A program made the position numbers and the translations under genes. A DNA stretch of 64,000 bases from Escherichia coli (lineage in GTDB: Bacteria > Pseudomonadota > Gammaproteobacteria > Enterobacterales > Enterobacteriaceae): the NCBI RefSeq assembly GCF_030013205.1, contig NZ_CP122648.1; one strand, 5' to 3'. The notes under the pieces are model-generated. The model did no database searches, was not told the DNA's origin, and was given only the letters and a program-made list of their open reading frames with translations. This document shows, in pieces, positions 30,080 through 51,355 of the stretch. How positions within the stretch are numbered: the stretch's first letter is position 1; the number at the start of each line of letters is the position of its first letter.

Positions 30080-30493
30080 TCATCCCAAAACTGCCGTACC
30101 CAGCCGACAAGTGCAGCAACGCCGCCCCTGTTCATCGAAAACGACGATTTCCCAGCTCTGATTTTGCCGCCCAAGATGCAACGGCTGGCAGACGCCGCGT
30201 ACCTTGCCTTCAGACACCGGGCGATGATGGGTGGCGTTAAGTTCCGTGCCCACCACACACTGTCCGTCGCAGGTCATCATAAATCCGGCCATCGATCCCA
30301 GCGTTTCCGCCAGCGCCGCCGACGCGCCGCCATGCAGCAGGCCAAACGGCTGATGAGTACGGGTATCAACCGGCATTTCGGCTTCCAGCACATCATCGTC
30401 CAGACGGGTGTAAACGATTCCCAGATGCGCCACCATTGTGTTATCGCTGGTGGCGTTCAGCTCGTCGAGCGTTAAATGGCGTTTCCAGATCAT
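30080..30493 (-). CDS. entH: proofreading thioesterase of enterobactin synthesis (hotdog fold)
   Basis: 137-aa ORF; matches EntH/YbdB. Confidence 0.94.
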
Positions 30494-30495
30494 GC

Positions 30496-31242
30496 TTATG
30501 CCCCCAGCGTTGAGCCGCCATCGACCACAATATCCTGTAGGGTGATATGGCTGGCGAGATCAGAGGCGAGGAACAAAATCGTATTGGCGATCTCCTGTGG
30601 ACGGGCGATTTTCCCCAGCGGAATGCCGAGTTTAAACTGCTCGCCAAAGCCGCGAATACGCTGCTCTTCGGCGTCATCGCTCACCCACAGCGTGCGTTGC
30701 ATATCGGTGTCGGTGGAACCCGGCGAAACCACATTACAGCGCACGCCGCTACCCGCCAGTTCCAGCCCAACGCTCAACGCCAGGCTTTTCAGCGCCGCTT
30801 TCGACGCGCCATAAGCACTCATACCAATGCGCGGCGTGTGTGCGGCGTCGGACGCAACAGTAACAATCGCCCCGCCCCGCTGACGGCGAAACTGGTTCAT
30901 GGTCTGCTGGAACAGGTTAAACGCACCACCGACATTGACCGCAAAAGTCTGCTGCCAGTCCTCCTTACTGAGCTGATCGGTCGCGCCCATGCGCAAAATT
31001 CCCGCCGCATTGACCAGCACGTCCAGTCGCTCCGTTTCAGCTAACAGTCGCTGACATACCTGCGCCACCTGCGCAGCATCGGCAACATCCATCACTTCGG
31101 TCGCAAAGGGATATTGCTCCTGAGCGAACGCTTGATCAAAACCAGTGACTTTCGCTCCCGCCTCAACAAACGCCAGCGCCGTGGCGTAGCCGATACCTTT
31201 CCCTGCGCCAGTTACCCAGACATTTTTACCGCTGAAATCCAT
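30496..31242 (-). CDS. entA: 2,3-dihydro-2,3-dihydroxybenzoate dehydrogenase
   Basis: 248 aa from internal ATG ([18 protein letters not shown]..., Rossmann motif). Confidence 0.95.
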
Positions 31243-32099
31243 TATTTCACCTCGCGGGAAAGTAGCTTCCACCAGGCGTCGATGGTCGGGTTTTTCGCCA
31301 GCATGACAAAGTCGATATCGCCATGCACTTTGCGCCAGCGCGCCGCCAGCGCCATCATGCGCACCGAATCCAGACCGTAGTCGATCAGGTTGTCGTCATC
31401 GAACGGTTCATCGGACTCGTCCAGCAACGGCAGGATCACCTCACGCAGCGCCGCTTTGCTGGCGGGGATAGGTGCTGGCAGTAATTCTTCGGTCATCACC
31501 ACCCGGCCAGAACGTCCGGCCACATATTTCAGCGACATCAAATGCTCGTCACGGCTGAAATCGGCCAGCGCATCTGCCACCATAAACGGTTTAATATCGC
31601 GCATAAATGCGTCGGTTGCGGTGGTCATACAGCCAATGTGGGCATATACCCCGGTAATAATCAGCTGGTTACGTCCACTCTCTTTCAGCATTTGCTCCAG
31701 CGGGGAACGATGAAACGCGCTGTAGCGCCACTTCACCAGCACCGTGTCGTCGGCATCTGGCGTCAGGCTATCCACCACCTTTTGCTGTTCCGGCGAACGG
31801 GTCAGGCCAGGCCCCCACATATCATTCAACAGCGCCCGATCTTCATCGCTCTGCTCTTTCGGCTGGGCGGTGTAATAAACCGGGATATTGTGCTGTTTGC
31901 AGTAGTCGCGTAGTGCCGCAATATTCGCGATCACCTGCTCCATCATCGGGCAGTTCTCGCCCCAGAAGCTGACAAAATAGTCCTGCATATCATGGATTAA
32001 CAACGCGGCACGTTGCGGTTCAAAGGCCCAGTCGACTTTATTCTGCGGAATATCGTGAGACTCCGGCAGTGCGTAAGCCTGTAATTTTGGAATAGCCAT
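31242..32099 (-). CDS. entB: isochorismatase / aryl carrier protein
   Basis: 285-aa ORF; matches EntB. Confidence 0.96.
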   Translation of the reverse strand: MAIPKLQAYALPESHDIPQNKVDWAFEPQRAALLIHDMQDYFVSFWGENCPMMEQVIANIAALRDYCKQHNIPVYYTAQPKEQSDEDRALLNDMWGPGLTRSPEQQKVVDSLTPDADDTVLVKWRYSAFHRSPLEQMLKESGRNQLIITGVYAHIGCMTTATDAFMRDIKPFMVADALADFSRDEHLMSLKYVAGRSGRVVMTEELLPAPIPASKAALREVILPLLDESDEPFDDDNLIDYGLDSVRMMALAARWRKVHGDIDFVMLAKNPTIDAWWKLLSREVK

Positions 32100-32112
32100 C
32101 GTGTTCTCTCCT

Positions 32113-33723
32113 TCAGGCTGATGCGCGTGACGCCAGCCACTGACGTAATTGTTTTTTCTCGACTTTCCCGACCGCCGTCAGCGGAAGTGAATCCACACAC
32201 TCCACGCGATCCGGTAATTTAAATTCGGCAATACCCTGTTCACGCAGGAAACGACGCACCTGCACCGCGCGTAGAGGCTCTTTTACCACCAGATAAGCAC
32301 AGCTTTTTTCGCCCATCAGCTCATCTTCCATGCTCACCAGTGCGGCGTAGATCACCGCCGGATGGCGCAGCAGCAGGTTTTCGATCTCTTCGGCAGCGAT
32401 CTTCTCGCCGCCACGGTTGATCTGATCTTTCTCGCGCCCCTGCACGGTGATGTACCCCTCTGGATCAATAGAGATCAGATCACCAGAACAGTAAAAACCG
32501 TTGGCATCAAAGGCGCTGGCATTGTGCTGCGGGCTTTTGTAATAGCCGCGGAAGGTGTACGGACCGCGCGTCATCAGGCGTCCGACTTCCCCTTGCGGCA
32601 GTGGATTTCCTTCGGCATCGGCAACCCACACTTCATCGTCCGGACACATTGGATAGCCCTGGGTATGGATTATTTTCTCCGCGCTATCATCAAGTCGGGT
32701 GTAGTTCACCAGTCCTTCCGCCATGCCGAATACCTGCTGTAACTGGCAGCCAATCTCTGCGGGAATACGCGCCGCAAGCGTGGCAGAAAGACGTGCACCA
32801 CCGACCTGTAACAGTTTCAGCGAGGCAAGCTGCGCCCGGCTTTCGCCTTCGGTCAGCGCCTGTAACCACAGGCTGACTGCGGGTGGCACCAGCGCGGTGA
32901 CGTTCACCTGATGTTTTTCAATCAATGGGAAGCAGAGCGTGGCGCTGGGGTCGGCAGCCAGAACGACAGTGCCGCCAGCGAGAAATACGCCCAGCGATCC
33001 TGGCGAACTCATGGCGTAGTTATGAGCCGCCGGGATCGCGCACAGGTAGCGTGTCTGTTGTGTGAACTGACAAATCTCGACGCTACGACGCACGCTGTAG
33101 TAGTAGTCGTTATGAGTGCGCGGGATCAGTTTCGGTGTGCCGGTGGTGCCGCCGGAAAGCTGGAAATAGGCCACTTCATCAGCAGGTGACGGCGTGGCAG
33201 TAAAATCCTCAGCCGGATGGTTAATCGCATCCTGCAAGTTATGCTCACCGCTGTCGTTGTGCAGTTGCACCACGCGAATGGAGGAATGCTCTGCAACAAA
33301 TGTATTGAGGAAATCATCTCCGCTAAACAGCGCATGCTGGCGATCGGCAATCAGTAACGCCGGTTCAATCTGGCTGGCATAGGCGTTCAGTTCACTACGC
33401 TGATGGCTGAACAGCGCCAGCACCGGCGCAACGCCCAGTTTCAGCAGTGCGAAAAAGGTAATGTAAAGTTCAGCGACGTTACCCAGTTGTACCAGCGCGG
33501 TTTCACCAGGTTTAATGCCCTGACGGCGTAAACTACACGCGAGGTTATCCGCCGCCTGATTCAGCTCTCGGTAACTCAACTGCCGCTCGCCGTCGATAAC
33601 CGCGATGCTGTCACTCGCAGCGTGGCGGGTCAGAATATCGGTCAGTGGCAAATCCTGCCAGTAGCCTTTTTCCCGATAGCGACGGGAAAACTCTTCCGGC
33701 CAGCGGGTGAATGGAATGCTCAT
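32113..33723 (-). CDS. entE: 2,3-dihydroxybenzoate-AMP ligase
   Basis: 536 aa from internal ATG ([12 protein letters not shown]...); adenylation-domain motifs. Confidence 0.95.
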
Positions 33724-33732
33724 CCTCACTCC

Positions 33733-34908
<1,176 letters not shown>

Positions 34909-34935
34909 ATCATCCTCCACAAAATGATAAAGGAT

Positions 34936-34958
34936 TTAATAATGATTATCATTTATAT
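34936..34958. promoter_or_regulatory. Fur box in the entC-fepB divergent promoter region
   Basis: taataatgattatcatttat resembles the Fur consensus GATAATGATAATCATTATC. Confidence 0.6.
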
Positions 34959-35096
34959 TTTCGGTAGCTAACCTAAAAGCAAACGCGCACTATGTCAACT
35001 CTTGAGGTAACGCAATCTGCAACTCGGGGTTGCATCTGGTTGTGGTTACAATGAAAATGAGAAGCATTAACTTCATTAATAACAGGAAGCTGACTT

Positions 35097-36053
35097 GTGA
35101 GACTCGCCCCGCTCTACCGCAACGCCCTTCTATTAACAGGACTTTTGCTTTCAGGAATAGTCGCAGTTCAGGCCGCCGACTGGCCGCGTCAGATTACTGA
35201 CAGCCGGGGCACTCATACCCTGGAAAGCCAGCCGCAGCGTATTGTTTCCACCAGCGTCACCCTGACCGGCTCACTGCTGGCGATTGATGCTCCGGTGATC
35301 GCCAGCGGCGCGACCACGCCAAATAACCGCGTCGCGGATGACCAGGGCTTTTTACGCCAGTGGAGCAAGGTGGCGAAAGAACGCAAACTGCAACGGCTCT
35401 ATATCGGCGAACCGAGTGCAGAAGCCGTTGCCGCGCAAATGCCGGATCTGATTTTAATTAGCGCAACTGGCGGGGATTCGGCGCTGGCGCTGTATGATCA
35501 GCTTTCCACCATAGCCCCGACATTAATCATCAATTACGACGACAAAAGCTGGCAGGCGCTGTTAACGCAACTTGGCGAAATTACCGGGCATGAGAAACAA
35601 GCGGCAGAGCGGATTGCACAGTTTGATAAGCAACTGGCGGCGGCGAAAGAGCAAATCAAATTACCGCCGCAGCCGGTCACTGCCATTGTCTATACCGCCG
35701 CTGCACACAGTGCCAATCTCTGGACGCCGGAATCAGCACAAGGGCAGATGCTGGAACAACTCGGCTTTACGTTGGCGAAATTGCCCGCAGGGTTAAACGC
35801 CAGCCAAAGCCAGGGCAAACGCCATGACATCATTCAGCTTGGTGGAGAAAATCTGGCTGCAGGGTTAAATGGCGAGTCACTATTCCTGTTCGCCGGTGAT
35901 CAGAAAGATGCCGATGCGATTTATGCTAATCCGCTGCTCGCGCACCTGCCTGCAGTACAAAACAAGCAGGTTTATGCGCTGGGAACCGAGACGTTCCGTC
36001 TGGATTACTACAGCGCCATGCAAGTGCTGGAACGGCTTAAGGCGCTGTTTTAA
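35097..36053 (+). CDS. fepB: periplasmic ferric-enterobactin binding protein
   Basis: 318-aa ORF with GTG start ([20 protein letters not shown]...); matches FepB. Confidence 0.93.
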
Positions 36054-36056
36054 GCA

Positions 36057-37307
36057 TTAACTGTCGGACGCTGTCACCTGCGGCGGCGTCTGGCGAAAAC
36101 GCCGCAACTCCACCAGCACCAGCAATAACAACACGCCGATAATCAACAAACCAAAACCGCTCGCGCTTGCGGAAGCAACCGGTGTCATCATCGCGCCCAA
36201 ACCGCCCAGCAGCGCCGCGCCTATGGCATCACCCGTCACGTTTTGTGCCGTCCACAAACCGTTAATCCGCCCTAACATCGCTTCCGGGGTTTGCGTTTGC
36301 AGCATTGTATATTGCAGCAACGAACTAACCGCGCTCAGCCAGCCGAACAGCGCCAGACAAACCACGCCTAAAATCCACATCGGCATCAAGCCAAACAGCC
36401 CAATGGCGAGGAACGATCCCAGCGTGGAGAGCAGCATCAATAACCCTGGTCGCGCGCTATGTGCCAGCTTCCCGCTGGTTAACGCGCCAATAGCCGCGCC
36501 GAGCGGGATCGCCGCATAGAGAAAACCAATCTGTGCCGCCGACATCTGCCAGTTGTCAGCCAGCGCCGGATACAGTACCCGCACCGCGCTCGCCATCGTC
36601 AATAAACCACCCAACAGCGCAATCCCTCCTACCAGCGGGCTGGCGAGCAGAAAACGAAATCCTGCCAGTAATGATTTCAACGGATGCTCACGCGGCTGCG
36701 GTGGCGGTGGCAACGCCGGAAGGCTTAACAACGGTAGCAAGGTAATAAACGTGCCCGCCGCCGCCAGCCCGTAGTTCCAGGCTACGCCGCCAGTCGCCAG
36801 CAGTAAACCACCAATCATAGGCGAAATCACCGATCCCAGGCGCACAGTCAACATGGTGATCGCCCCGGCCTGCATTAAGTTTTCACGCCCTACCAGTGCA
36901 GGTGTCGCCGCCAGTAGCGCCGTAACGCCAAGTGATGCGAAAAAACCATCCCATAAACCAAGTAAATAGATTGCCAACAATGACGGCTCCGGCAGCAGTG
37001 CATTAAGGCACAGTCCAATGAAGCCAATGCCACAGGTGCCGCGCGCCAGCAAAATCACTTTTTTGCGTTCATAGCGATCCGCCAGCACACCGCCGACCAT
37101 CAGGCCAACAAACATCGCGCCGCCGGTCAGCGTCACCGAAAGCCCCACCTGCCAGGTAGAATGCGTCATCATCTGGATCTGCACCGGCACCGCGACGCCG
37201 AGCAAACCCAGAGACACAATTGAGATAAAACGAGCGAGGAATACTGCACGAAACGCCGGGTGCGTTTTCAACAGGCTGAGGTTAAGCAGCCAGGATTGTT
37301 TATTCAT
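36057..37307 (-). CDS. entS: enterobactin exporter (MFS)
   Basis: 416-aa MFS-type membrane ORF; matches EntS. Confidence 0.94.
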
Positions 37308-37380
37308 TACAATGCCTTGCCATCAAATATTTTAAATACCTATTTTTAGGCTGCACATGCTAACATATCCAAATAAGATC

Positions 37381-37407
37381 GATAACGATAATTAATTTCA
37401 TTATCAT
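37381..37407. promoter_or_regulatory. Fur box in the entS-fepD divergent promoter region
   Basis: gataacgataattaatttcattatcat closely matches the Fur consensus. Confidence 0.65.
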
Positions 37408-37417
37408 GGAAGTTCGT

Positions 37418-38422
37418 ATGTCTGGTTCTATTGCCGTGACACGCGCCATTGCCGTGCCCGGATTGCTGTTATTACTGATTATCGCGACGGCATTAAGCCT
37501 GCTCATTGGGGCAAAATCACTCCCCGCTTTCGTAGTGCTGGAGGCCCTCTCCGGCACCTGCCAGAGCGCCGACTGCACCATCGTGCTCGACGCGCGACTG
37601 CCGCGCACCCTTGCCGGTTTACTAGCCGGCGGTGCGCTTGGCCTTGCCGGGGCGTTGATGCAAACCCTCACCCGAAACCCACTTGCCGACCCCGGCTTGC
37701 TTGGTGTGAACGCCGGAGCCAGCTTTGCCATTGTGCTGGGTGCGGCGCTGTTTGGTTACTCATCCGCGCAGGAACAACTGGCGATGGCCTTCGCCGGGGC
37801 GCTGGTGGCCTCATTGATTGTTGCCTTTACCGGCAGCCAGGGCGGCGGGCAGTTAAGTCCGGTGCGTTTAACCCTGGCGGGCGTGGCACTGGCGGCGGTG
37901 CTGGAAGGGCTGACCAGCGGCATCGCCCTGCTTAATCCTGACGTCTACGATCAGTTGCGTTTCTGGCAAGCCGGTTCGCTGGATATTCGCAATCTACATA
38001 CCTTAAAAGTGGTGCTGATCCCGGTGCTGATCGCCGGAGCAACCGCACTATTACTGAGCCGCGCGCTGAACAGTTTAAGCCTCGGCAGTGACACCGCGAC
38101 GGCGCTGGGTAGTCGCGTGGCGCGCACACAGTTGATTGGTCTGCTGGCGATTACCGTGCTTTGTGGTAGTGCGACGGCGGTAGTTGGCCCGATTGCCTTT
38201 ATTGGCCTGATGATGCCGCACATGGCGCGCTGGCTGGTAGGTGCCGATCATCGCTGGTCGCTGCCCGTCACGCTACTCGCCACCCCTGCCCTGCTGCTGT
38301 TTGCCGATATCATCGGGCGGGTGATTGTGCCCGGCGAACTGCGCGTTTCTATAGTCAGTGCCTTTATTGGCGCACCGGTGCTGATCTTCCTCGTGCGACG
38401 TAAAACGCGAGGTGGCGCATGA
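37418..38422 (+). CDS. fepD: ferric-enterobactin ABC permease
   Basis: 334 aa from internal ATG (MSGSIAVTRAIAVPGLL...). Confidence 0.94.
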   Translation: MSGSIAVTRAIAVPGLLLLLIIATALSLLIGAKSLPAFVVLEALSGTCQSADCTIVLDARLPRTLAGLLAGGALGLAGALMQTLTRNPLADPGLLGVNAGASFAIVLGAALFGYSSAQEQLAMAFAGALVASLIVAFTGSQGGGQLSPVRLTLAGVALAAVLEGLTSGIALLNPDVYDQLRFWQAGSLDIRNLHTLKVVLIPVLIAGATALLLSRALNSLSLGSDTATALGSRVARTQLIGLLAITVLCGSATAVVGPIAFIGLMMPHMARWLVGADHRWSLPVTLLATPALLLFADIIGRVIVPGELRVSIVSAFIGAPVLIFLVRRKTRGGA

Positions 38423-39411
38423 TTTACGTCTCTCGCCGATTAATCATCACCTGTTTGCTGCTAATTACCGCCTGTGTGGTTGCAGGTATCTGGGGATTAC
38501 GCAGCGGTACCGTCACGCTGGAAACCTCGCAGGTATTCGCCGCGCTGATGGGCGATGCGCCGCGCAGTATGACGATGGTGGTCACCGAATGGCGTTTACC
38601 ACGCGTGCTGATGGCGCTGTTGATTGGCGCGGCACTGGGCGTCAGCGGCGCGATTTTTCAGTCGCTGATGCGTAACCCGCTCGGTAGCCCTGACGTAATG
38701 GGCTTTAACACCGGGGCGTGGAGCGGCGTGCTGGTGGCGATGGTGCTGTTTGGTCAGGACCTGACGGCTATCGCGCTGGCAGCAATGGCGGGCGGCATTG
38801 TCACCTCGCTGCTGGTCTGGCTGCTCGCCTGGCGTAACGGCATCGACACCTTTCGGTTGATTATTATTGGTATCGGCGTTCGCGCCATGCTGGTGGCCTT
38901 TAATACCTGGCTGTTGCTGAAAGCGTCTTTAGAAACGGCGCTAACAGCGGGTTTGTGGAATGCCGGATCGCTCAACGGCCTGACGTGGGCAAAAACCTCG
39001 CCCTCCGCACCCATCATTATATTGATGCTCATTGCCGCCGCCTTGCTGGTGCGGCGGATGCGCTTGCTGGAGATGGGTGATGATACCGCATGTGCGCTGG
39101 GCGTCAGCGTCGAACGTTCGCGTCTGTTAATGATGCTGGTTGCAGTGGTGCTTACCGCTGCGGCAACGGCGCTTGCCGGGCCGATTTCTTTTATTGCTTT
39201 AGTCGCGCCGCACATTGCCCGACGCATTAGCGGCACCGTTCGCTGGGGGCTGACCCAGGCGGCGCTGTGCGGGGCGCTGTTACTGCTGGCGGCCGATCTC
39301 TGCGCCCAACAACTGTTTATGCCGTATCAACTTCCGGTTGGCGTCGTTACCGTCAGCCTCGGTGGTATTTACCTTATCGTCTTGTTAATTCAGGAGTCTC
39401 GCATAAAATGA
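38419..39411 (+). CDS. fepG: ferric-enterobactin ABC permease
   Basis: 330-aa ORF; 4-nt overlap with fepD. Confidence 0.94.
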   Translation: MIYVSRRLIITCLLLITACVVAGIWGLRSGTVTLETSQVFAALMGDAPRSMTMVVTEWRLPRVLMALLIGAALGVSGAIFQSLMRNPLGSPDVMGFNTGAWSGVLVAMVLFGQDLTAIALAAMAGGIVTSLLVWLLAWRNGIDTFRLIIIGIGVRAMLVAFNTWLLLKASLETALTAGLWNAGSLNGLTWAKTSPSAPIIILMLIAAALLVRRMRLLEMGDDTACALGVSVERSRLLMMLVAVVLTAAATALAGPISFIALVAPHIARRISGTVRWGLTQAALCGALLLLAADLCAQQLFMPYQLPVGVVTVSLGGIYLIVLLIQESRIK

Positions 39412-40223
39412 CCGAATCAGTAGCCCGTTTGCGCGGCGAACAGTTAACCCTCGGATATGGCAAATATACCGTTGCAGAAAATCTGACTGTAGAAATACCT
39501 GATGGTCACTTCACGGCAATTATCGGGCCAAATGGCTGCGGTAAATCCACGTTACTGCGTACCTTAAGCCGCCTGATGACGCCTGCTCACGGGCATGTCT
39601 GGCTGGATGGTGAGCACATTCAACATTACGCCAGTAAAGAAGTTGCCCGGCGGATTGGCCTGTTGGCGCAAAACGCCACCACGCCGGGAGATATCACCGT
39701 GCAGGAGCTGGTGGCGCGTGGGCGTTACCCGCATCAACCGCTGTTTACCCGCTGGCGCAAAGAAGATGAAGAAGCGGTAACGAAAGCGATGCAGGCCACG
39801 GGAATCACTCATCTGGCAGGTCAAAGCGTGGATACCCTTTCTGGCGGACAACGCCAGCGAGCGTGGATCGCGATGGTGCTGGCCCAGGAAACGGCAATTA
39901 TGCTGCTCGATGAACCAACGACCTGGCTGGATATCAGTCATCAGATTGATCTCCTGGAACTGTTAAGCGAACTGAACCGCGAGAAAGGCTATACCCTGGC
40001 GGCGGTGCTGCACGATCTTAATCAGGCCTGTCGTTACGCCAGCCATTTGATTGCATTGCGGGAAGGGAAAATTGTTGCTCAGGGAGCGCCGAAGGAGATT
40101 GTCACTGCTGAATTGATCGAGCGCATTTATGGTCTGCGCTGCATGATTATTGACGTTCCGGTAGCCGGAACTCCGCTCGTGGTGCCGCTCGGACGAACGG
40201 CACCTTCAACTGCCAAGATTTAA
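39408..40223 (+). CDS. fepC: ferric-enterobactin ABC ATPase
   Basis: 271 aa from internal ATG (MTESVARLRGEQL...); Walker A GPNGCGKST. Confidence 0.95.
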   Translation: MTESVARLRGEQLTLGYGKYTVAENLTVEIPDGHFTAIIGPNGCGKSTLLRTLSRLMTPAHGHVWLDGEHIQHYASKEVARRIGLLAQNATTPGDITVQELVARGRYPHQPLFTRWRKEDEEAVTKAMQATGITHLAGQSVDTLSGGQRQRAWIAMVLAQETAIMLLDEPTTWLDISHQIDLLELLSELNREKGYTLAAVLHDLNQACRYASHLIALREGKIVAQGAPKEIVTAELIERIYGLRCMIIDVPVAGTPLVVPLGRTAPSTAKI

Positions 40224-41353
40224 ACTAAGTGCTCTTCCATCACGGCATCCTGTTTTCTGGATGCCATCGCATGGCGCAACAGCACGCCACCACAAGCCAC
40301 CATCCCGCCGATCATCGCAGAAAGGATCACAATAATCGCCTTACCCGGACCGTCTTTTTTCACTGGCAATGACGGGCTTAACTGATATTTAAACGGCGTA
40401 AAATTCACATCGTTGATATTTGCTTTTGTTAGCTGCTCAACAAGATACTGGCGATTACGTAATTCACCGTTCAGTTCCGCAACGTCAGTAACCGCTTTTT
40501 CAATTTCCAGTTTGCGTTCAATACCGTCTGCGCCGAGAGAAATAGAGAAATCGGGGTCGTCTTTAACAGCCTGACCATTACTGTAAACGGGCTTTTTAAT
40601 TCCTGCCGCGTTAGCAATGTCGAGTGAATAATTGAGGCGCTGAATGTTTGCATCAAGTTGATTTTTCATTTTAATGCGGTCCTGAGCCAGTTTTTCTTTT
40701 TCAAACTGGGTTTTAAGCTCCAGTCTATTGCGCTCATTTTCTATCGACTCTTTCACCACCAGAGCAGAGATATAATCGATATACCCGCTCAAAACGGTTT
40801 GCGCCTCTTCATTGGTTGGCGCGGTAAAACTTAGCGTCCAGGAGGTATAAAGTGACGGTTCATCTTTTTTCTTACTGGCATTGTCATCAACCGCTTTCAT
40901 TTTTTCGCTCAATGCGACAATTGCGCGATGCAAATCCAGTTCGTCGATTTTCGCCTCTTTTAATTGGTCCATCACATAAGGTGTTGAGCGCAGGTACTCT
41001 TCCAGCAAGCTAACCGACTGAAACTTCTTGATAAACAGGTTAAATGCTTCTGTACGATCAATTTTGATATCCAGATCCAGCACTCGAAGCTTAGTGAATG
41101 TTTTCTCCAGCTCTTGCCACTGAACAGGTTCTGGAGGCGTGACAACCGCCGCGCTGGTCCATTTTTGCGGCAGGATGAAAGAGATCAGCAAGCCTGCGCA
41201 GGCAAACGCAAAAATGACCGCCATGACCGTTTTTTTGGCCCGCCATAAAACTGCGATTAGATTAAGTAAATCAATTTCATTATTACTGGGCGACGCCAGA
41301 GGATACTCAGGAAAATGAGCGTCACTTCCCTGTTTAATATTCAGTGATGACAT
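40220..41353 (-). CDS. fepE: polysaccharide co-polymerase family protein (O-antigen chain-length regulator-like)
   Basis: 377 aa from internal ATG (MSSLNIKQGSDAHFP...). Confidence 0.92.
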   Translation of the reverse strand: MSSLNIKQGSDAHFPEYPLASPSNNEIDLLNLIAVLWRAKKTVMAVIFAFACAGLLISFILPQKWTSAAVVTPPEPVQWQELEKTFTKLRVLDLDIKIDRTEAFNLFIKKFQSVSLLEEYLRSTPYVMDQLKEAKIDELDLHRAIVALSEKMKAVDDNASKKKDEPSLYTSWTLSFTAPTNEEAQTVLSGYIDYISALVVKESIENERNRLELKTQFEKEKLAQDRIKMKNQLDANIQRLNYSLDIANAAGIKKPVYSNGQAVKDDPDFSISLGADGIERKLEIEKAVTDVAELNGELRNRQYLVEQLTKANINDVNFTPFKYQLSPSLPVKKDGPGKAIIVILSAMIGGMVACGGVLLRHAMASRKQDAVMEEHLV

Positions 41354-41515
41354 GGGGTATAACCTGAAAATGAGTCCAATAGGGGAAATCTCCACGGCGC
41401 TCACTTTACCAGTTGGTGATAATTATCCGAAGCTGAAGTTTGTAAATTCCTTCCACTGAATGCAACATTCACTCTATTTAAGAGAAATATTCATCAAACC
41501 TATAAATCAAACAAA

Positions 41516-41552
41516 TAAAAAACCCATAATTATTTTCTGTAATTATGGGTTT
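41516..41552. terminator. hairpin terminator downstream of entF
   Basis: aaaaaacccataattattttctgtaattatgggttt: perfect AT-rich-loop palindrome with A and T flanks. Confidence 0.6.
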
Positions 41553-41567
41553 ATAGATAATGTTAAT

Positions 41568-44500
41568 TTATCTGTTTAGCGTTGCGCGAATAATCGGCCC
41601 AATTTTTTCAAATGCCCCTGGAGAGATAATATCCACATGCGCACAATCCTGACGATAGATATCCAGCTCGGCTATCCACGGCGACCAGACGCGTTCGGGA
41701 TTCATACCTTCCTGAAGCGTGCGTTCAGCAACAAACAGCGTCGCTTTACCGTCAAACGGTACGCTATGAGCAGTCGTCAGCAGGCGCACAGCATCAGCGT
41801 AGTTGCCTTCAATGGTGGTAAACAACTCCGTTGAAGTACTTCCCTGCTGTGCCGCCAGGAAGGCCTCGCGCTCGCGGTTAATCTCCGCCAGCACTTCCGG
41901 GTCCAGGCCATTAGCCTCTTTTTCCTGCCAGTTTTGCGTTTCTGGCGGCCAGGTATCCAGCAAGCCAAGAAATGCCACCTGTTCGCCACGGGCACGCAGC
42001 CGCGCCGCAATACCCTGCGCCAGCGTACCGCCCAGCGAATAACCCAGCAGGTAATAAGGGCCGTGCGGTTGATGCTCAAGTAACGTTGCCAGATGCGCTT
42101 CGCAGACTTCATCCAGATTTGCCGCGGTCTGCATGGGGCCATTGGGGCGCGGCGACTGAATGCCGATAATCGACCATTGTGGATCGAGATAACGCGAGAG
42201 CACGCTGAACTGCCAGGCAAAACCGGACGCAGGATGGAAACAAAACAGCGTCGGGCCATTACCTTCACGCAACGGCAGAATGGTTTCGAATCCCATGCGC
42301 CGGGAGCTGTCTTCTTCACCATCAATAATCGTTGCCAGTTTGGCGACAGTTGACGCGACCATCACCTGCCCCGGCGTCACCTGGCGGGTAAACTGCCGAC
42401 TTAACTGCGCAGCCAGTTTCATTGCCAGTAGCGAATGACCGCCAAGCGCGAAGAAATCAGCATCGGCATCCTGCACGTCACAACCCAGCAACGACGAGAA
42501 TGCCGCGGCGATAATCGTTTCACTGCCCGCTTTCGGCGCACGCCCCGGCGCTTGTGCCTTCAGTTCAGGCAACGGTAAGGCTTTGCGATCCAGCTTGCCG
42601 TTGGCGCTAAGCGGCAACTGCGGAAGTTGCAGCAGAACCACGGGCACCATATGCGGTGGCAATGTTTCGCGCAACTGCGCCTGCAATGCAGTGGTATCCA
42701 ACGGCAGGCCTGATTGCGACACCAGATACCCAACCAACTGACGCGCATCGCCTCCCGTTGCGGCAGCCTGGTTAATAACGCAGGCGTGGGTCACGGCCTG
42801 TTCAACGTCCGGCAGCGCCTGCATCACGCGATCGATTTCGCCCAGTTCGATACGCTGCCCGCGAATTTTTAGCTGATCGTCACTGCGCCCGAGGTACTCC
42901 ACCGCGCCGTTATCCAGCCAGCGGGCAACGTCTCCGGTACGGTACATCCGTTCGCCAGGGGCAAAAGGATTGGCAATAAAGCGGCTGGCGGTCAGATCGG
43001 GTCGTCCGAGATAGCCCTGCGCCAGTTGTATGCCAGTGAGATAGAGATCTCCCGCCACACCCGGCGGCACCGGATGCATCATCGCATCAAGAATACGCAG
43101 GCCCGTATTCCACACCGGATAACCAATCGGCACACTGCTGCCGCGCACCTGAGCCAGTTCCTCGCCAAAAGCCGGATACCAGCTGACATCTACCGCCGCT
43201 TCCGTCGGGCCATATAGATTATGCAACGGCACGCCGGTTAACTGTTGCCATTCGCGGCATAAATCAGCCGGTAAGGCCTCACCACTACAGAAAACCTGTT
43301 TTAACGTCGCGCAATTCTGGCGAGCGGTTTGCGGAGTCAGCGATGCAACAAATGCCGCCAGCATCGACGGCACAAAGTGCGTGGTCGTTACGCCATATTC
43401 GGCAAAGAATTGCTGCATAGCGAGCGGGTCGCGGTGCGCTTCCGGTTCAGCCATCACCAGTTTAGCCCCGGCAATAAACGGCCAGAAAAACTCCCACACC
43501 GAGACATCAAAACTGCACGGCGTTTTTTGGGCAACGACATCTTCGCCTGTAAGCGGGTAGTGGTTTTGCATCCAAAGCAGGCGGTTAACGATAGCCGTCT
43601 GCCCGACCATTACCCCTTTCGGCCTGCCGGTGGAGCCAGAGGTAAAGATGATATAAGCCGTGTGGTGCGGTTGTGAAAGTTGCAGCGGCGCACTGCCCTG
43701 CGGTGTAAGCGGGGCGTTATAGCAAAGGCTGGTTAAATCTGGAACATCGGCAAAGCGCGGCAGTTGATCGTCGGTGGTGATTAACAGCGACGGACGCGCA
43801 TCTTCCAGCATCATTTTCAGGCGATCGTCCGGATAGCCGGTATCCAGCGGTAACCAGGCCGCACCTGTTTCAACAATCGCATGTAGCGCCAGAGTCAAAA
43901 ATACCGAGCGCGGTAGCGCCACCGCCACGCTGTCGCCTGGTTTAACGCCGCGCTCACGCAGCAGATTCGCCAGCGCCACCACCTGCTCGCGCATTTCCAG
44001 ATAGCTGAACTGGTAACGCGCATCTGCCAGCGCCGGAGCATCCGGTGTTTTTGCCGCTTGTTCTGCCACCAGCGCGCTCAGCGTGGTTTCTGGAATCTCA
44101 ACCTGAGTGGCGTTGATCTGCGCTAACTGCGCATACTCACCTGGCAGCATAATATCGACATCGCCGCACAACAGCGCAGGATCCGCGGCGAACTGGGCAA
44201 TCAGCATTTTCAGGCGTTCAGCGTGGTGAATTAACGTTGGCTCATCGTAACGCTGTTTATTGGCGAGGATCTCAATACTCAAATCACCGTGTTCATCCGG
44301 GAACAGGGCCAGTTCAAGGTCATTAACCGGACCGGTTGCCAGGGTATGGGTTCGCGTCTGAACACCAGGAATATCCAGTTGGTAATCAAATACCTTGATA
44401 TTGAGTACCGGACCGAACAGCGGTTCCTCTCCTGCCGCTCGCCCGCTGTCACGGACAATTTGTTCGGCATCGTAACGTTGATGACGACGCATTTTTTTCA

Positions 44501-45449
44501 GTTGTGCTGCCAGTCGGGTTGCCAGTTCCGGCAGCGTTTCTTGCGCCTCAATATGAATACCCAACGGCAAAACGTTGAGCACGGGTCCGGTAGCCGTCAG
44601 CGCCGCCGAGCCCAGTCGACGCATAAAGATAAATCCGGCAGCGTAGTCCATGCGATTGCACAATCGCCCCAGCCACAAGGCTGCCAACGCAAGGGCTAAA
44701 TCGGTACGCTGCACACCTGAAAGTTGCGTAGCCAGCTGGCGGAATTCCCCGTCAGTAAATTCCAGTTTCAGGCGAAGAATATCTGCCGAAGCGCTGCGCC
44801 CCGGTAAAGGTGCCGGAGAAAGTGACGCGGGCGGTGGCAGTTGACGACGCTGTTCCGCCCAGAATGCCGCATCACGCTGCCAGGCTTCACTTTCGCGGTA
44901 CTGCTGATACTCTTCCACTACATCAGCGAAAGGCGTAAACGGCGAAGCAGGCGTTGGTTCGCCACGCAGCCATGCGCAGTAAATATTGGCGATCTGGCGG
45001 GTAATGGCCGGGAAACTGAAGCCATCGACCAGCAAATGGTGATAACGCTGATACCAGTACCAGCGGTTATCCGCCACCAGTATCAACTGATGAAAGACCA
45101 GTGGTTTACCGCTATCGACGCGCAGATCTTGTTGCAATTCCGCCTGCATTAATGCCCGCGCAGTACCGTGCGGATCAATGTTGGTTCGCAGGTCGATAAT
45201 TTCTGGCAGTTCGAACGTCAGCGCATCATCGACCCACTGCCAGACTTCGCCGTTATCTTCCGTAAAACGCATCCGCAGCGTATCTGCTTGCGCTAATCCG
45301 GCAACCACCGCGCGGGCCAGTAATGGCGCATCAACCTCTCCGGTTAACTCAACGTAATGCGCCACGCTCCAGGCGGAGGGTAAATCCGACAGTTTTTCTG
45401 CCATCCAGATGCCGGGCTGTGCAGCGACCAAAGGTAAATGCTGGCTCAT
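41568..45449 (-). CDS. entF: enterobactin NRPS (serine-activating C-A-PCP-TE)
   Basis: 1293 aa from internal ATG (MSQHLPLVAAQPGIWMAEKL...); the track ORF carries a 46-codon upstream extension. Confidence 0.96.
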   Translation of the reverse strand: MSQHLPLVAAQPGIWMAEKLSDLPSAWSVAHYVELTGEVDAPLLARAVVAGLAQADTLRMRFTEDNGEVWQWVDDALTFELPEIIDLRTNIDPHGTARALMQAELQQDLRVDSGKPLVFHQLILVADNRWYWYQRYHHLLVDGFSFPAITRQIANIYCAWLRGEPTPASPFTPFADVVEEYQQYRESEAWQRDAAFWAEQRRQLPPPASLSPAPLPGRSASADILRLKLEFTDGEFRQLATQLSGVQRTDLALALAALWLGRLCNRMDYAAGFIFMRRLGSAALTATGPVLNVLPLGIHIEAQETLPELATRLAAQLKKMRRHQRYDAEQIVRDSGRAAGEEPLFGPVLNIKVFDYQLDIPGVQTRTHTLATGPVNDLELALFPDEHGDLSIEILANKQRYDEPTLIHHAERLKMLIAQFAADPALLCGDVDIMLPGEYAQLAQINATQVEIPETTLSALVAEQAAKTPDAPALADARYQFSYLEMREQVVALANLLRERGVKPGDSVAVALPRSVFLTLALHAIVETGAAWLPLDTGYPDDRLKMMLEDARPSLLITTDDQLPRFADVPDLTSLCYNAPLTPQGSAPLQLSQPHHTAYIIFTSGSTGRPKGVMVGQTAIVNRLLWMQNHYPLTGEDVVAQKTPCSFDVSVWEFFWPFIAGAKLVMAEPEAHRDPLAMQQFFAEYGVTTTHFVPSMLAAFVASLTPQTARQNCATLKQVFCSGEALPADLCREWQQLTGVPLHNLYGPTEAAVDVSWYPAFGEELAQVRGSSVPIGYPVWNTGLRILDAMMHPVPPGVAGDLYLTGIQLAQGYLGRPDLTASRFIANPFAPGERMYRTGDVARWLDNGAVEYLGRSDDQLKIRGQRIELGEIDRVMQALPDVEQAVTHACVINQAAATGGDARQLVGYLVSQSGLPLDTTALQAQLRETLPPHMVPVVLLQLPQLPLSANGKLDRKALPLPELKAQAPGRAPKAGSETIIAAAFSSLLGCDVQDADADFFALGGHSLLAMKLAAQLSRQFTRQVTPGQVMVASTVAKLATIIDGEEDSSRRMGFETILPLREGNGPTLFCFHPASGFAWQFSVLSRYLDPQWSIIGIQSPRPNGPMQTAANLDEVCEAHLATLLEHQPHGPYYLLGYSLGGTLAQGIAARLRARGEQVAFLGLLDTWPPETQNWQEKEANGLDPEVLAEINREREAFLAAQQGSTSTELFTTIEGNYADAVRLLTTAHSVPFDGKATLFVAERTLQEGMNPERVWSPWIAELDIYRQDCAHVDIISPGAFEKIGPIIRATLNR

Positions 45450-45664
45450 TGCGCCTCCTGCAACTGGGTGAAATTCGACGGTGTCAGAGTACGCCAGTGG
45501 GCTTCCAGCCACTGCTGGCAGGACGCCTGTGACTGCGGCTGACACACAACGTCCCAGCCTGCCGGTAAGGCGCATTGTTGCGGCCACAGACTGAATTGCC
45601 CCTGCGCATTGCGCAAAATGTAAAACGCTCCCTGCGGATCATCGAAGGGATTACTGAATGCCAT
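45446..45664 (-). CDS. ybdZ: MbtH-like protein
   Basis: 72 aa (MAFSNPFDDPQGAFYILRN...); 4-nt overlap with the entF start. Confidence 0.93.
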   Translation of the reverse strand: MAFSNPFDDPQGAFYILRNAQGQFSLWPQQCALPAGWDVVCQPQSQASCQQWLEAHWRTLTPSNFTQLQEAQ

Positions 45665-45666
45665 AT

Positions 45667-46869
45667 TCAACTCCTGTCATGGAAAAGTGGTTGCCAGAGG
45701 TCGATTAGCCCCTGCATCAAGCCACCGCGCCAACAAAGCGCATCATGTCCGCCGTCAACCTGACGCCAGAAAATGGATTCTTTTATGGGGTGTAATTGCG
45801 CATACAGCGCCTGATTGGCCCGCATGATCATCGGCTCGCGAATACCCGCTTCCAGCACAATGCGCAGACCTTCGGCGCTAACTTCACCAGCTTTAAGTTG
45901 CTCAAGTAACACGCCCTCTTGCTGCCCGCCCCGATGCGGCCACCAGTACGATCCTGACTGGCTTAATACACAGCCAAAGCGTTCAGGCCAGTTTAGTCCG
46001 GCATACAGCGCAGAAAGCCCACCAAAACTCTGCCCGGCGACCACGGTGCGATCGGCGCGATCGCTAAAAGGGGCAATAGCTTTCACCAGGGGTAATAACT
46101 CTTGCTGTACTGCCAGCCAGAAATCCGCATTACACGGCAGTTCGTGGGCGCGGTGCGGGGTGTCGATAGCGTCGATCAACACATACACGGCGGGAGGAAG
46201 TTGCTGACGATGGGTCAGCGAAGTTAGCGCAGGCCAGACGGGCATACTCTGCGCCCAAAATTCGCCATCAAGCAAAACTGCCAGCGGGCGTTCTTCTGCT
46301 GTTGCATCGCCGGTGGTAAAAATCCATACACGGCGTGAATTTTTCAGCCGCTCACTTTTCCAGATAATTTCTTTGACAGGCGTTTCTGGCGCTTGCGGAC
46401 AATCCCATCCCGGTTGCAGAGGCGCTTGCGGCATTTCGAGTGCAGAAACAGCGTGCCCTCGCCCGCCTTTCCAGCTTTGTGGATTCAGCGGATCGGCTAT
46501 CGCCTGGGGTAATAGTTTTCGCCAGCCTTCACGTAATTCGAGGCGATCGGGGGATGGTGCAGAAAAAATGTCATCGCGTTCGGTGGGAATAAAACAGTAG
46601 CTGCCGCGCCAGTTGGCATTAAGTTGTGTCGTCCACTGCCAGACGTTGGTACCTGCAATTCGCTGCATCGACTGGGGCTGGCTGTTCTGATGGTGATCGG
46701 TCACACCAGTGATGTAGACCCATACGCGCTTTATCGTCGAGTATTCTTCAGAACCTTGGGGATCACGCCACCAGAAAGTGACCTCAAACATTTCGTCATT
46801 CAGACGCTGCCATTCCGGGCCATGTTTCGACTGCCACCAGCTCTCACTTCCTACTTTTAACGCCGTCAC
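45667..46869 (-). CDS. fes: ferric-enterobactin esterase
   Basis: 400-aa ORF with GTG start (MTALKVGSESWWQSK...); the start could instead be an internal ATG. Confidence 0.9.
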   Translation of the reverse strand: MTALKVGSESWWQSKHGPEWQRLNDEMFEVTFWWRDPQGSEEYSTIKRVWVYITGVTDHHQNSQPQSMQRIAGTNVWQWTTQLNANWRGSYCFIPTERDDIFSAPSPDRLELREGWRKLLPQAIADPLNPQSWKGGRGHAVSALEMPQAPLQPGWDCPQAPETPVKEIIWKSERLKNSRRVWIFTTGDATAEERPLAVLLDGEFWAQSMPVWPALTSLTHRQQLPPAVYVLIDAIDTPHRAHELPCNADFWLAVQQELLPLVKAIAPFSDRADRTVVAGQSFGGLSALYAGLNWPERFGCVLSQSGSYWWPHRGGQQEGVLLEQLKAGEVSAEGLRIVLEAGIREPMIMRANQALYAQLHPIKESIFWRQVDGGHDALCWRGGLMQGLIDLWQPLFHDRS

Positions 46870-46920
46870 ACCATAACCCCATGTTTACTGTGCAATTTTT
46901 CATTGATTGCAGAAATATAT

Positions 46921-46945
46921 TGATAATATTATTGATAACTATTTG
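46921..46945. promoter_or_regulatory. Fur box in the fes-fepA divergent promoter region
   Basis: tgataatattattgataactatttgc resembles the Fur consensus. Confidence 0.6.
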
Positions 46946-47111
46946 CATTTGCAATAGCGTAATGGCGCGCCGTGGGAAGCGCGGACATTAATTAACCAAC
47001 TGCACTACGTGTCTTTCAGGATCAAAGGTTTTCGCGGTAGCGGGATGCGTCGTGTTGATGACGACCATGCCCGACAGTTGCAATTCGTGGCAAAAATGCA
47101 GGAATAAAACA

Positions 47112-49352
47112 ATGAACAAGAAGATTCATTCCCTGGCCTTGTTGGTCAATCTGGGGATTTATGGGGTAGCACAGGCACAAGAGCCAACCGATACTCCTGT
47201 TTCACATGACGATACCATTGTCGTTACCGCCGCCGAGCAGAACTTGCAAGCGCCTGGCGTTTCGACCATCACCGCAGATGAAATCCGCAAAAACCCCGTT
47301 GCCCGCGATGTGTCGGAGATCATCCGTACCATGCCAGGCGTTAACCTGACCGGTAACTCCACCAGTGGTCAGCGTGGGAATAACCGACAGATTGATATTC
47401 GCGGTATGGGTCCGGAAAACACGCTGATTTTGATTGACGGCAAGCCGGTAAGCAGCCGTAACTCGGTGCGCCAGGGCTGGCGTGGCGAGCGCGATACCCG
47501 TGGTGATACCTCCTGGGTGCCACCTGAAATGATTGAACGTATTGAAGTTCTGCGTGGTCCGGCAGCGGCGCGTTATGGCAACGGCGCGGCGGGCGGCGTG
47601 GTTAACATCATCACCAAAAAAGGCAGCGGCGAGTGGCACGGCTCCTGGGACGCATATTTCAATGCGCCAGAACATAAAGAGGAAGGTGCCACCAAACGCA
47701 CTAACTTTAGCCTCACCGGTCCGCTGGGCGACGAATTCAGCTTCCGCTTGTATGGCAACCTCGACAAAACTCAGGCTGACGCGTGGGATATCAACCAGGG
47801 CCATCAGTCCGCGCGTGCCGGAACGTATGCCACGACGTTACCAGCCGGGCGCGAAGGGGTAATTAACAAAGATATTAATGGCGTGGTGCGCTGGGACTTC
47901 GCGCCTCTGCAATCACTCGAACTGGAAGCGGGCTACAGCCGCCAGGGTAACCTGTATGCGGGCGATACCCAGAACACCAACTCTGACTCCTATACCCGCT
48001 CGAAATATGGCGATGAAACCAACCGTCTGTATCGCCAGAACTACTCGCTGACATGGAACGGCGGCTGGGATAACGGCGTGACCACCAGCAACTGGGTGCA
48101 GTACGAACACACCCGTAACTCGCGTATTCCGGAAGGTCTGGCGGGCGGTACCGAAGGGAAATTTAACGAAAAAGCGACACAGGATTTCGTCGATATCGAT
48201 CTCGATGATGTGATGCTGCACAGCGAAGTTAACCTGCCGATTGATTTCCTCGTTAACCAGACGCTGACGCTGGGTACGGAGTGGAATCAGCAACGGATGA
48301 AGGACTTGAGTTCCAATACCCAGGCGCTGACCGGGACGAATACCGGCGGTGCTATTGATGGTGTGAGTGCCACCGACCGTAGCCCGTATTCAAAAGCAGA
48401 AATTTTCTCGCTGTTTGCCGAAAACAACATGGAGCTGACTGACAGCACCATCGTAACGCCGGGGCTGCGTTTCGATCATCACAGCATTGTTGGCAATAAC
48501 TGGAGTCCGGCGCTGAACATCTCGCAAGGTTTAGGCGATGACTTCACTCTGAAAATGGGCATTGCCCGTGCTTATAAAGCGCCGAGTCTGTACCAGACTA
48601 ACCCGAACTACATTCTCTACAGTAAAGGTCAGGGCTGCTATGCCAGCGCGGGCGGCTGCTATCTGCAAGGTAATGATGACCTGAAAGCGGAAACCAGCAT
48701 CAACAAAGAGATTGGTCTGGAGTTCAAACGCGACGGCTGGCTGGCGGGCGTCACCTGGTTCCGTAACGATTATCGCAATAAGATTGAAGCGGGCTATGTG
48801 GCTGTAGGGCAAAACGCAGTCGGCACCGATCTCTATCAGTGGGATAACGTACCGAAAGCGGTGGTTGAAGGTCTGGAAGGATCGTTAAACGTACCGGTTA
48901 GCGAAACGGTGATGTGGACCAATAACATCACTTATATGCTGAAGAGTGAAAACAAAACCACGGGCGACCGTTTGTCGATCATCCCGGAGTATACGTTGAA
49001 CTCAACGCTGAGCTGGCAGGCACGGGAAGATTTGTCGATGCAAACAACCTTCACCTGGTACGGCAAGCAGCAGCCGAAGAAGTACAACTATAAAGGTCAG
49101 CCAGCGGTTGGACCGGAAACCAAAGAAATCAGCCCGTACAGCATTGTTGGCCTGAGCGCGACCTGGGATGTGACGAAGAATGTCAGTCTGACCGGCGGCG
49201 TGGACAACCTGTTCGACAAACGTTTGTGGCGTGCAGGTAATGCCCAGACCACGGGCGATCTGGCAGGAGCCAACTATATCGCCGGTGCCGGGGCGTATAC
49301 CTATAACGAGCCGGGACGTACGTGGTATATGAGCATTAATACTCACTTTTGA
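47112..49352 (+). CDS. fepA: TonB-dependent ferric-enterobactin outer-membrane receptor
   Basis: 746 aa from internal ATG (MNKKIHSLALLVNLGIYGVAQA...); terminal F of the beta-barrel. Confidence 0.96.
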   Translation: MNKKIHSLALLVNLGIYGVAQAQEPTDTPVSHDDTIVVTAAEQNLQAPGVSTITADEIRKNPVARDVSEIIRTMPGVNLTGNSTSGQRGNNRQIDIRGMGPENTLILIDGKPVSSRNSVRQGWRGERDTRGDTSWVPPEMIERIEVLRGPAAARYGNGAAGGVVNIITKKGSGEWHGSWDAYFNAPEHKEEGATKRTNFSLTGPLGDEFSFRLYGNLDKTQADAWDINQGHQSARAGTYATTLPAGREGVINKDINGVVRWDFAPLQSLELEAGYSRQGNLYAGDTQNTNSDSYTRSKYGDETNRLYRQNYSLTWNGGWDNGVTTSNWVQYEHTRNSRIPEGLAGGTEGKFNEKATQDFVDIDLDDVMLHSEVNLPIDFLVNQTLTLGTEWNQQRMKDLSSNTQALTGTNTGGAIDGVSATDRSPYSKAEIFSLFAENNMELTDSTIVTPGLRFDHHSIVGNNWSPALNISQGLGDDFTLKMGIARAYKAPSLYQTNPNYILYSKGQGCYASAGGCYLQGNDDLKAETSINKEIGLEFKRDGWLAGVTWFRNDYRNKIEAGYVAVGQNAVGTDLYQWDNVPKAVVEGLEGSLNVPVSETVMWTNNITYMLKSENKTTGDRLSIIPEYTLNSTLSWQAREDLSMQTTFTWYGKQQPKKYNYKGQPAVGPETKEISPYSIVGLSATWDVTKNVSLTGGVDNLFDKRLWRAGNAQTTGDLAGANYIAGAGAYTYNEPGRTWYMSINTHF

Positions 49353-49391
49353 TGCTAACGTCAGATTGTTGACAAAGTGCGCGTAGTTCAT

Positions 49392-49489
49392 GCCGGATGC
49401 GGCGTGAACGCCTTATCCGGCCTACAAAAATCTTGCCAATTCAATATATTGCAGGACCACGTAGGCCTGATAAGCGTAGCGCATCAGGC
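49392..49489. repeat. REP (palindromic unit) elements, BIME-like pair
   Basis: gccggatgcggcgtgaacgccttatccggcctac and the inverted gtaggcctgataagcgtagcgcatcaggc between fepA and entD. Confidence 0.8.
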
Positions 49490-49526
49490 AGTTTTGCGTT
49501 TGTCATCAGTCTCTAATATGGTCGAC

Positions 49527-50147
49527 ATGAAAACTACGCATACCGCCCTCCCCTTTGCCGGACATACGCTGCATTTTGTTAAGTTCGATCCGGCGAGTTT
49601 TTGTGAGCAGGATTTACTCTGGCTGCCACACTACGCGCAACTGCAACACGCTGGACGTAAACGTAAAACAGAGCATTTAGCCGGACGGATCGCTGCAGTT
49701 TATGCGCTGCGGGAATATGGCTATAAATGTGTGCCCGCAATCGGCGAGCTACGCCAACCTGTGTGGCCTGCGGGGGTATACGGCAGCATTAGTCACTGTG
49801 GGACTACGGCATTAGCCGTGGTATCTCGTCAACCAATTGGCATTGATATCGAAGAGATTTTCTCTGTACAAACCGCAAGAGAATTGACAAACAACATTAT
49901 TACACCAGCAGAACACGAGCGACTCGCAGAATGCGGTTTAACCTTTTCTCTGGCGCTGACACTGGCATTTTCCGCCAAAGAGAGCGCATTTAAGGCATCG
50001 GAGAGACAAACTGATGCAGGATTTCTGGATTATCAGATAATTAGCTTGAATAAACAGCAGATCATCATTCGACTAGAGGATGAGCAGTTTGCTGTGCACT
50101 GGCAGATAAAAGAAAAGATAGTCATAACGCTGTGCCAACACGATTAA
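49527..50147 (+). CDS. entD: enterobactin synthase phosphopantetheinyl transferase
   Basis: 206 aa from internal ATG (MKTTHTALPFAGHTL...); matches EntD. Confidence 0.93.
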   Translation: MKTTHTALPFAGHTLHFVKFDPASFCEQDLLWLPHYAQLQHAGRKRKTEHLAGRIAAVYALREYGYKCVPAIGELRQPVWPAGVYGSISHCGTTALAVVSRQPIGIDIEEIFSVQTARELTNNIITPAEHERLAECGLTFSLALTLAFSAKESAFKASERQTDAGFLDYQIISLNKQQIIIRLEDEQFAVHWQIKEKIVITLCQHD

Positions 50148-50268
50148 TTGACAATACCCGGAGCGATTCGCCCGCAGCCAATGCTGACTGCGGGCGAAAG
50201 TGTAAAGCAGGTGCCTTACTACTCTGACCTGACAACCGGATATGCGGGGATTACTCCCCGCACAACGG

Positions 50269-50421
50269 CTACTTCTTCGGTTCGTAAGCGAGAACAGCCT
50301 TAAACTCAATATTACGTTCCTTCACCGTAAACTCACACAGCGAGTCTCCGACCAGAAGCGTAAATCCCAGCACCGTTAAACACAGCACTATGACTGCCAC
50401 AAGGGCATATTTCGTCAGCAT
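50269..50421 (-). CDS. hokE: Hok-family membrane toxin (HokE-like), copy 1
   Basis: 50 aa [50 protein letters not shown]. Confidence 0.85.
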
Positions 50422-50566
50422 GTTTATATTGCCTCCATGCGAAGAAGGGACTACCATCCGAGTTGTTGAGGTTCGGAGTGGCAGCCCCAGGATTGATAGA
50501 AATATCTCCTGGGGCTTCATCTTTCCAGACCTCAGAGTTAACCTGAAACCGGAAAGCTTCAGGCAC
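50333..50566 (-). CDS. mok-like overlapping reading frame (modulator of hok translation), copy 1
   Basis: 77-codon ORF in a different frame, starting upstream of hok and ending inside it ([16 protein letters not shown]...). Confidence 0.5.
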
Positions 50567-50630
50567 CCGCTGTTATCTTACCCTTCCTTAGCAAAATAAC
50601 TGTTTATTTATACAGCAAGTCCTGTTTCGG
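50560..50630 (+). ncRNA. predicted Sok-like antisense RNA, copy 1 (position inferred)
   Basis: inferred only from hok/sok architecture (antisense to the mok initiation region / hok leader); hairpin agtcctgtttcggact present; no promoter confirmed. Confidence 0.3.
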
Positions 50631-50670
50631 ACTTCTGTTGGCAACACTCGTTATTGCTCGTAAAACGAAA

Positions 50671-51131: not shown

Positions 51132-51132
51132 G
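51062..51132 (+). ncRNA. predicted Sok-like antisense RNA, copy 2 (position inferred)
   Basis: inferred from architecture; extended hairpin agtgagtcctgtttcggacttctcact. Confidence 0.3.
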
Positions 51133-51355
51133 ACTTCTCACTCCTCATTTGATCAACTGAAGCTGAACCCGTTTTTTTCTGCATGCCTCAATCGTCAAAA
51201 TTCTTCGCCACCAGTCCGCACTGCCATAACTTGTCATATTGCAAAATGTAGCCAATTTGCTTCAGTCACCATCATCAAAAAAAGAAACATTCCAGAACTT
51301 CCGCATCTCGCCCAGTCGCTCCCACTTCTATACTGAATAGAAAACGCCAACATAA

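Follow-up and report, generated by a model that had tools for sequence, protein, structure and literature searches.

An intact enterobactin locus of canonical organisation, with conserved putative Fur operators, in the porcine Escherichia coli strain ETEC4079

The region at positions 30080–50147 of the window (the whole 64-kb stretch of DNA analysed) is, judging from its sequence and with little room for doubt, a canonical, intact and Fur-controlled E. coli enterobactin locus, already known and with nothing unusual about it. A megablast search of complete E. coli genomes placed the region at 100% identity in the chromosome of the porcine E. coli ETEC4079 (NZ_CP122643.1), and the full 64-kb window corresponds to positions 3606694–3670693 of that record, both flanks being byte-identical too. 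Few siderophore loci are as well studied as the enterobactin system, which essentially every E. coli genome carries, the same query being recovered at ≥80% coverage in 5411 of the 5426 complete genomes. The value of the present analysis is mostly that of an annotation check: the locus is intact in a porcine ETEC strain and its Fur operators are conserved, the sole structural departure from the K-12 reference being a repeat element in the fepB leader whose presence or absence is a common polymorphism. Several porcine relatives, including K_EC180, O139:H1 W13-16 and ETEC1748, were reported at 100.0% identity over the 20,068 bp. K_EC180, the only relative compared at single-nucleotide resolution, has the same short entC-fepB spacer as the window and differs from it by a single nucleotide over the 20 kb, at position 40156 (T in the window, A in K_EC180).

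Gene content, integrity, order and family membership were read directly from the window. All 16 CDS agree with those of K-12 MG1655 in length, order and start codon and contain no internal stops, with 1–31 amino acid substitutions per protein across the translated set, and RefSeq, which annotates all of these 16 genes in NZ_CP122643.1, flags none as a pseudogene; the claim of a preliminary description that all synthesis, export, uptake and esterase genes are present and full length is thereby borne out. The boundaries given there also proved exact, with the entH stop at 30080 and the entD stop at 50147. Between these, the genes run entH-A-B-E-C (−), fepB (+), entS (−), fepD-G-C (+), fepE (−), entF-ybdZ-fes (−) and fepA-entD (+), which is the expected organisation and collinear with the K-12 MG1655 cluster (entD-fepA-fes-ybdZ-entF-fepE-fepCGD-entS-fepB-entCEBAH, b0583–b0597), having the same genes in the same order and orientation and proteins of equal length. 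When the 20,068-bp region was aligned globally to the corresponding 20,255 bp of K-12, DNA identity was 96.8%, with only two indels, a 186-bp K-12-only segment in the fepB leader, after window position ~35066, and a fepE-entF spacer that is 1 bp shorter in the window. We therefore agree that no extra gene has been inserted into the cluster.

Curated NCBIfam equivalog cutoffs were exceeded by 13 of the proteins (EntH, EntA, EntE, EntC, FepB, EntS, FepD, FepG, FepC, FepE/Wzz, EntF, Fes and EntD), and FepA scored above the threshold set for NF010048, which models the FepA subfamily. EntB and YbdZ had no NCBIfam HMM match at the thresholds used (E ≤ 1e-20 for EntB); both carry the expected Pfam domains, as do EntF and Fes. 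The biochemical roles below are carried over from the K-12 literature. Genes for the 2,3-dihydroxybenzoate (DHB) pathway are all intact on the minus strand: entC (33733–34908), encoding isochorismate synthase (391 aa; NF011591, 863 bits, cutoff 624); entB (31242–32099), a 285-aa isochorismatase and aryl carrier protein (Pfam Isochorismatase at residues 31–204 and PP-binding at 217–276), also named EntB by RefSeq; entA (30496–31242), 2,3-dihydro-2,3-dihydroxybenzoate dehydrogenase (248 aa; NF006074, 443 bits, cutoff 312); and entE (32113–33723), the 2,3-dihydroxybenzoate-AMP ligase (536 aa; NF008192, 1034 bits, cutoff 783). By this route EntC, the N-terminal domain of EntB and EntA would convert chorismate to DHB, which EntE would load onto the EntB carrier domain. 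The neighbouring entH (30080–30493, −) encodes a proofreading hotdog thioesterase of 137 aa with two amino acid differences from K-12 (NF007607, 310 bits, cutoff 237), expected to proofread misloaded carrier domains.

The assembly line is represented by the nonribosomal peptide synthetase EntF (41568–45449, −; 1293 aa; NF007605, 2802 bits, cutoff 2400), a C-A-T-TE protein with Pfam Condensation, AMP-binding, PP-binding and Thioesterase domains in that order, together with the MbtH-like protein YbdZ (45446–45664, −; 72 aa; Pfam MbtH, 77 bits) and the phosphopantetheinyl transferase EntD (49527–50147, +; 206 aa, 14 amino acid differences from K-12; NF007604, 421 bits, cutoff 169). EntF, primed by EntD and helped by YbdZ, would condense DHB with serine and cyclo-trimerise the product to enterobactin.

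Transport and release proteins all have K-12 lengths and NCBIfam scores above cutoff. Export would proceed through the MFS enterobactin exporter EntS (36057–37307, −; 416 aa; NF007792, 716 bits, cutoff 324), and ferric enterobactin would be re-imported by the TonB-dependent outer-membrane receptor FepA (47112–49352, +; 746 aa; 1281 bits, cutoff 493), the periplasmic binding protein FepB (35097–36053, +; 318 aa, GTG start; NF008200, 519 bits, cutoff 205) and the ABC transporter FepDGC. The latter comprises the permeases FepD (37418–38422, +; 334 aa; NF007760, 625 bits, cutoff 428) and FepG (38419–39411, +; 330 aa; NF007759, 643 bits, cutoff 422) and the ATPase FepC (39408–40223, +; 271 aa; NF007606, cutoff 497). 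The enterochelin esterase Fes (45667–46869, −; 400 aa, GTG start; NF007758, 707 bits, cutoff 222) would then hydrolyse ferric enterobactin to release iron. The remaining gene, fepE (40220–41353, −), encodes a Wzz-type O-antigen chain-length regulator (377 aa; NF007699, 619 bits, cutoff 300); its presence in the cluster is normal and is shared by K-12, and despite its name it serves chain-length control rather than an enterobactin function.

The T at position 40156 produces a D250V missense change in FepC that leaves the protein untruncated, the codon in the nearest relatives having A (Asp). A 57-mer centred on the SNP matched 1243 genomes, among which the T is private to ETEC4079. A complete locus could in principle still be impaired in ferric-enterobactin uptake if this exchange of a charged for a hydrophobic residue damaged the FepC ATPase, such that enterobactin would be made and its import across the inner membrane blocked. 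We regard this as very improbable: residue 250 lies in a non-conserved C-terminal tail, after the nucleotide-binding core (Walker A, signature, Walker B and H-loop) that extends to about residue 235, FhuC has His at the aligned position, which falls past the region alignable to HmuV, and FepC carrying the substitution still scores 607 bits against its equivalog model. The T could, moreover, have arisen from a sequencing error confined to a single assembly. An effect of D250V on function is therefore unlikely given its position.

Regulation by Fur was assessed by scanning all 64 kb of the window with the 19-bp consensus GATAATGATAATCATTATC and with a second model, a three-hexamer array of GATAAT / ATTATC. 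The proposal in the preliminary description of Fur-box-like sites in the entC-fepB, entS-fepD and fes-fepA spacers held up, the sites being the best matches of the window. The four highest-scoring 19-mers fall at 37387 (16/19) and 37381 (15/19) in the entS-fepD spacer and at 34938 and 35053 (both 15/19) in the entC-fepB spacer, and the top three-hexamer array, at 46922 (16/18), is in the fes-fepA spacer. One match with ≤3 mismatches to the 19-bp consensus was found in the window, compared with 0.01 expected in shuffles. As a control for AT-richness, each spacer was compared with 2000 dinucleotide shuffles of its own sequence, giving p = 0.001 for entC-fepB, p = 0.0005 for entS-fepD and, with the hexamer model, p = 0.001 for fes-fepA. 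With the 19-mer model the latter spacer gave p = 0.07 (best match 13/19), and the putative fes-fepA site is convincing only through the hexamer-array model and its identity to the K-12 footprint. Fur-site scores in the control spacers cstA-entH and fepA-entD were not significant against their own dinucleotide shuffles.

In K-12, DNase footprints have been obtained at fepA-fes, fepB and entC, and a Fur cluster has been reported at fepD-entS (Chen et al. 2007, PMC2189734, Tables 3 and 4). Coordinates from that study were related to NC_000913.3 by an offset of +777, checked by the stated gene distances (fepD-entS −25 and −86; fepA −172). The candidate entC operator (34914–34962), directly upstream of the entC start codon and including the 15/19 match at 34938, is identical at 48 of 49 positions to K-12 footprint 624054–624102 (Table 3), with one SNP. 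A second candidate, that of fepB (35047–35071), contains the 15/19 match at 35053–35071, overlaps a −10-like hexamer (TACAAT) and lies ~26 bp upstream of the fepB GTG. The corresponding K-12 footprint (623939–623969) projects onto 35047–35077, and identity extends to ~35066–35069, beyond which the sequences diverge where the K-12-only element sets in. At fepD-entS, the operator cluster (37375–37411), with both high-scoring 19-mers, is identical to K-12, the K-12 centre at 621437 (Table 4) mapping to 37393. The fepA-fes operator (46914–46961), within which the 16/18 hexamer array lies, matches K-12 footprint 611868–611915 (Table 3) at 48 of 48 positions. The entC-fepB spacer thus holds two separate predicted Fur operators, one per promoter, which brings the locus to four operator regions rather than three.

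Fur-box matches beyond chance, together with equivalence to operators footprinted in K-12, are the sequence features by which the locus is assigned to the Fur regulon; operator presence and conservation are direct observations, and Fur occupancy is taken over from the K-12 literature. Across nine other E. coli strains, ent and fep genes belong to the Fur core regulon defined by ChIP-exo and expression (Gao et al. 2023, PMC10164565), which supports carrying K-12 regulation over to other lineages. As in K-12, where the same three bidirectional Fur-controlled regions occur and the footprinted operators are the conserved ones, transcription would proceed outward from entC<>fepB, entS<>fepD and fes<>fepA. 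Sigma-70-like hexamers overlap the Fur sites, and since the operators overlap the promoters of these regions, Fe2+-Fur would be expected to repress the whole system when iron is sufficient. A sigma-70 and terminator consensus scan of positions 34000–50400 showed no enrichment over shuffles (14 versus 11.7 expected; 26 versus 21.6), so that promoter positions are taken from the K-12 literature rather than from the scan.

The entC-fepB spacer measures 188 bp in the window and 374 bp in K-12. The additional 186 bp of K-12 are a GC-rich imperfect palindrome predicted to form a long hairpin (−95.8 kcal/mol, z = −5.0). A scan of this element against Rfam by E-value gave only sub-threshold miRNA-hairpin matches, i.e. 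a generic hairpin, and a literature search on it returned nothing relevant; it may resemble repeats of the Box C or RSA type, which in E. coli are GC-rich, palindromic and intergenic. The full, long spacer was found in 2755 of the 5426 complete E. coli genomes, while in the remainder the match was confined to sequence that both forms have in common; short-spacer genomes include those of O157:H7 and ST131. Spacer length is accordingly polymorphic, at close to 50:50 across the complete E. coli genomes, and the short form is not special to ETEC4079.

The short spacer could change fepB control relative to K-12, through translation or mRNA stability and through the strength of Fur repression. Removal of the 186-nt hairpin would shorten the fepB mRNA leader from ~230 to ~45 nt and leaves the Fur box close to the start codon, and in K-12 the element starts inside the 3′ end of the footprinted fepB operator, adjoining the Fur box. 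Because the element is absent, the fepB operator departs from the K-12 sequence at its 3′ edge, and Fur affinity there could therefore differ slightly. The 19-mer itself, however, scores 15/19 in short and long alleles alike (counted from the aligned sequences), the short allele is widespread, and fepB belongs to a Fur iModulon, with fepABCD commonly Fur-regulated across strains including Sakai (O157:H7) (PMC10164565). We consider altered fepB control a minority possibility; any such effect would be quantitative and would leave the identity of the locus as a canonical enterobactin cluster unchanged. A further step would be to regard presence or absence of the hairpin as a balanced, functionally meaningful polymorphism that tunes FepB expression or Fur repression, which we think doubtful. 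If true, about half of E. coli lineages would differ from the others in FepB expression or Fur repression, with the window on the short-allele side.

A hairpin resembling an intrinsic terminator, conserved in K-12, lies directly after the entF stop codon (41520–41552, −) and consists of a 13-bp stem followed by a T-run. The adjoining fepE-entF spacer also contains a Fur-like array at 41550–41567 (hexamer 15/18, p = 0.007), which was considered as a further Fur site and rejected: the best 19-mer is 12/19 (p = 0.5), the array coincides in part with the AT-rich terminator stem and with the stop codon of entF, its score falls to 13/18 in K-12, and it has no matching footprint in PMC2189734.

Outside the cluster, K-12 has IS186 beside hokE, where the window instead has a tandem pair of hokE/sokE loci. 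Two copies of hokE were common among genomes in a junction query, in which pieces were joined and which hence gives no carrier count. Within the cluster, the fepA-entD spacer holds a BIME of two inverted REP units (49380–49490), read directly from the sequence and with a strong predicted hairpin (z = −5.3), which accounts for an Rfam ES036 match at 49427–49468, beside a sub-threshold naRNA4 match, and for many of the extra places found by megablast.

The entC-fepB spacer spans 188 bp in the window (34909-35096), compared with 374 bp for its counterpart in Escherichia coli K-12 MG1655 (positions 21512-21885 of the K-12 segment L002). What the window's spacer lacks is a GC-rich hairpin repeat of 186 bp that, in K-12, lies in the fepB leader and begins at the margin of the Fur footprint of fepB. 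Among 5426 complete E. coli genomes, 2755 have the long form of the spacer and the remainder the short form. Elsewhere in the enterobactin locus, a Fur-like hexamer array scoring 15/18 (41550-41567) overlaps a strong intrinsic-terminator hairpin situated just past entF (41520-41552), while its K-12 counterpart scores only 13/18; this array is probably an AT-rich coincidence.

Within fepC, a T in place of A at position 40156 (codon 250) results in the substitution D250V, located in the non-conserved C-terminal tail of the protein. The SNP is strain-private; based on a 57-mer centred on this position, the porcine strain ETEC4079, whose chromosome contains a sequence identical to the window, was the sole carrier among 1243 genomes matched. 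The fepA-entD spacer consists of a BIME with two inverted REP units (49380-49490), which matched Rfam family ES036 (CssrF) above threshold and naRNA4 below threshold.

Directly downstream of entD are two hokE/sokE loci, type I toxin-antitoxin systems arranged in tandem (50168-51138), comprising a 503-bp unit in copies sharing 95-96% identity, with two Rfam sok matches. K-12 has a single hokE with an adjoining IS186. Two hokE copies are also annotated in many other E. coli genomes, including O157:H7. Antisense to and overlapping the second copy, RefSeq places a frameshifted 'hypothetical protein' pseudogene (50825-51092), which is likely an artefact that the hok duplication caused in the annotation. 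Between uspG and ahpF, a minus-strand tnpA gene of the IS200C transposase family (17929-18387) adjoins a match to Rfam STnc490 (18397-18520), and together these (17929-18520) probably represent an IS200 copy with its own 5' structured RNA.
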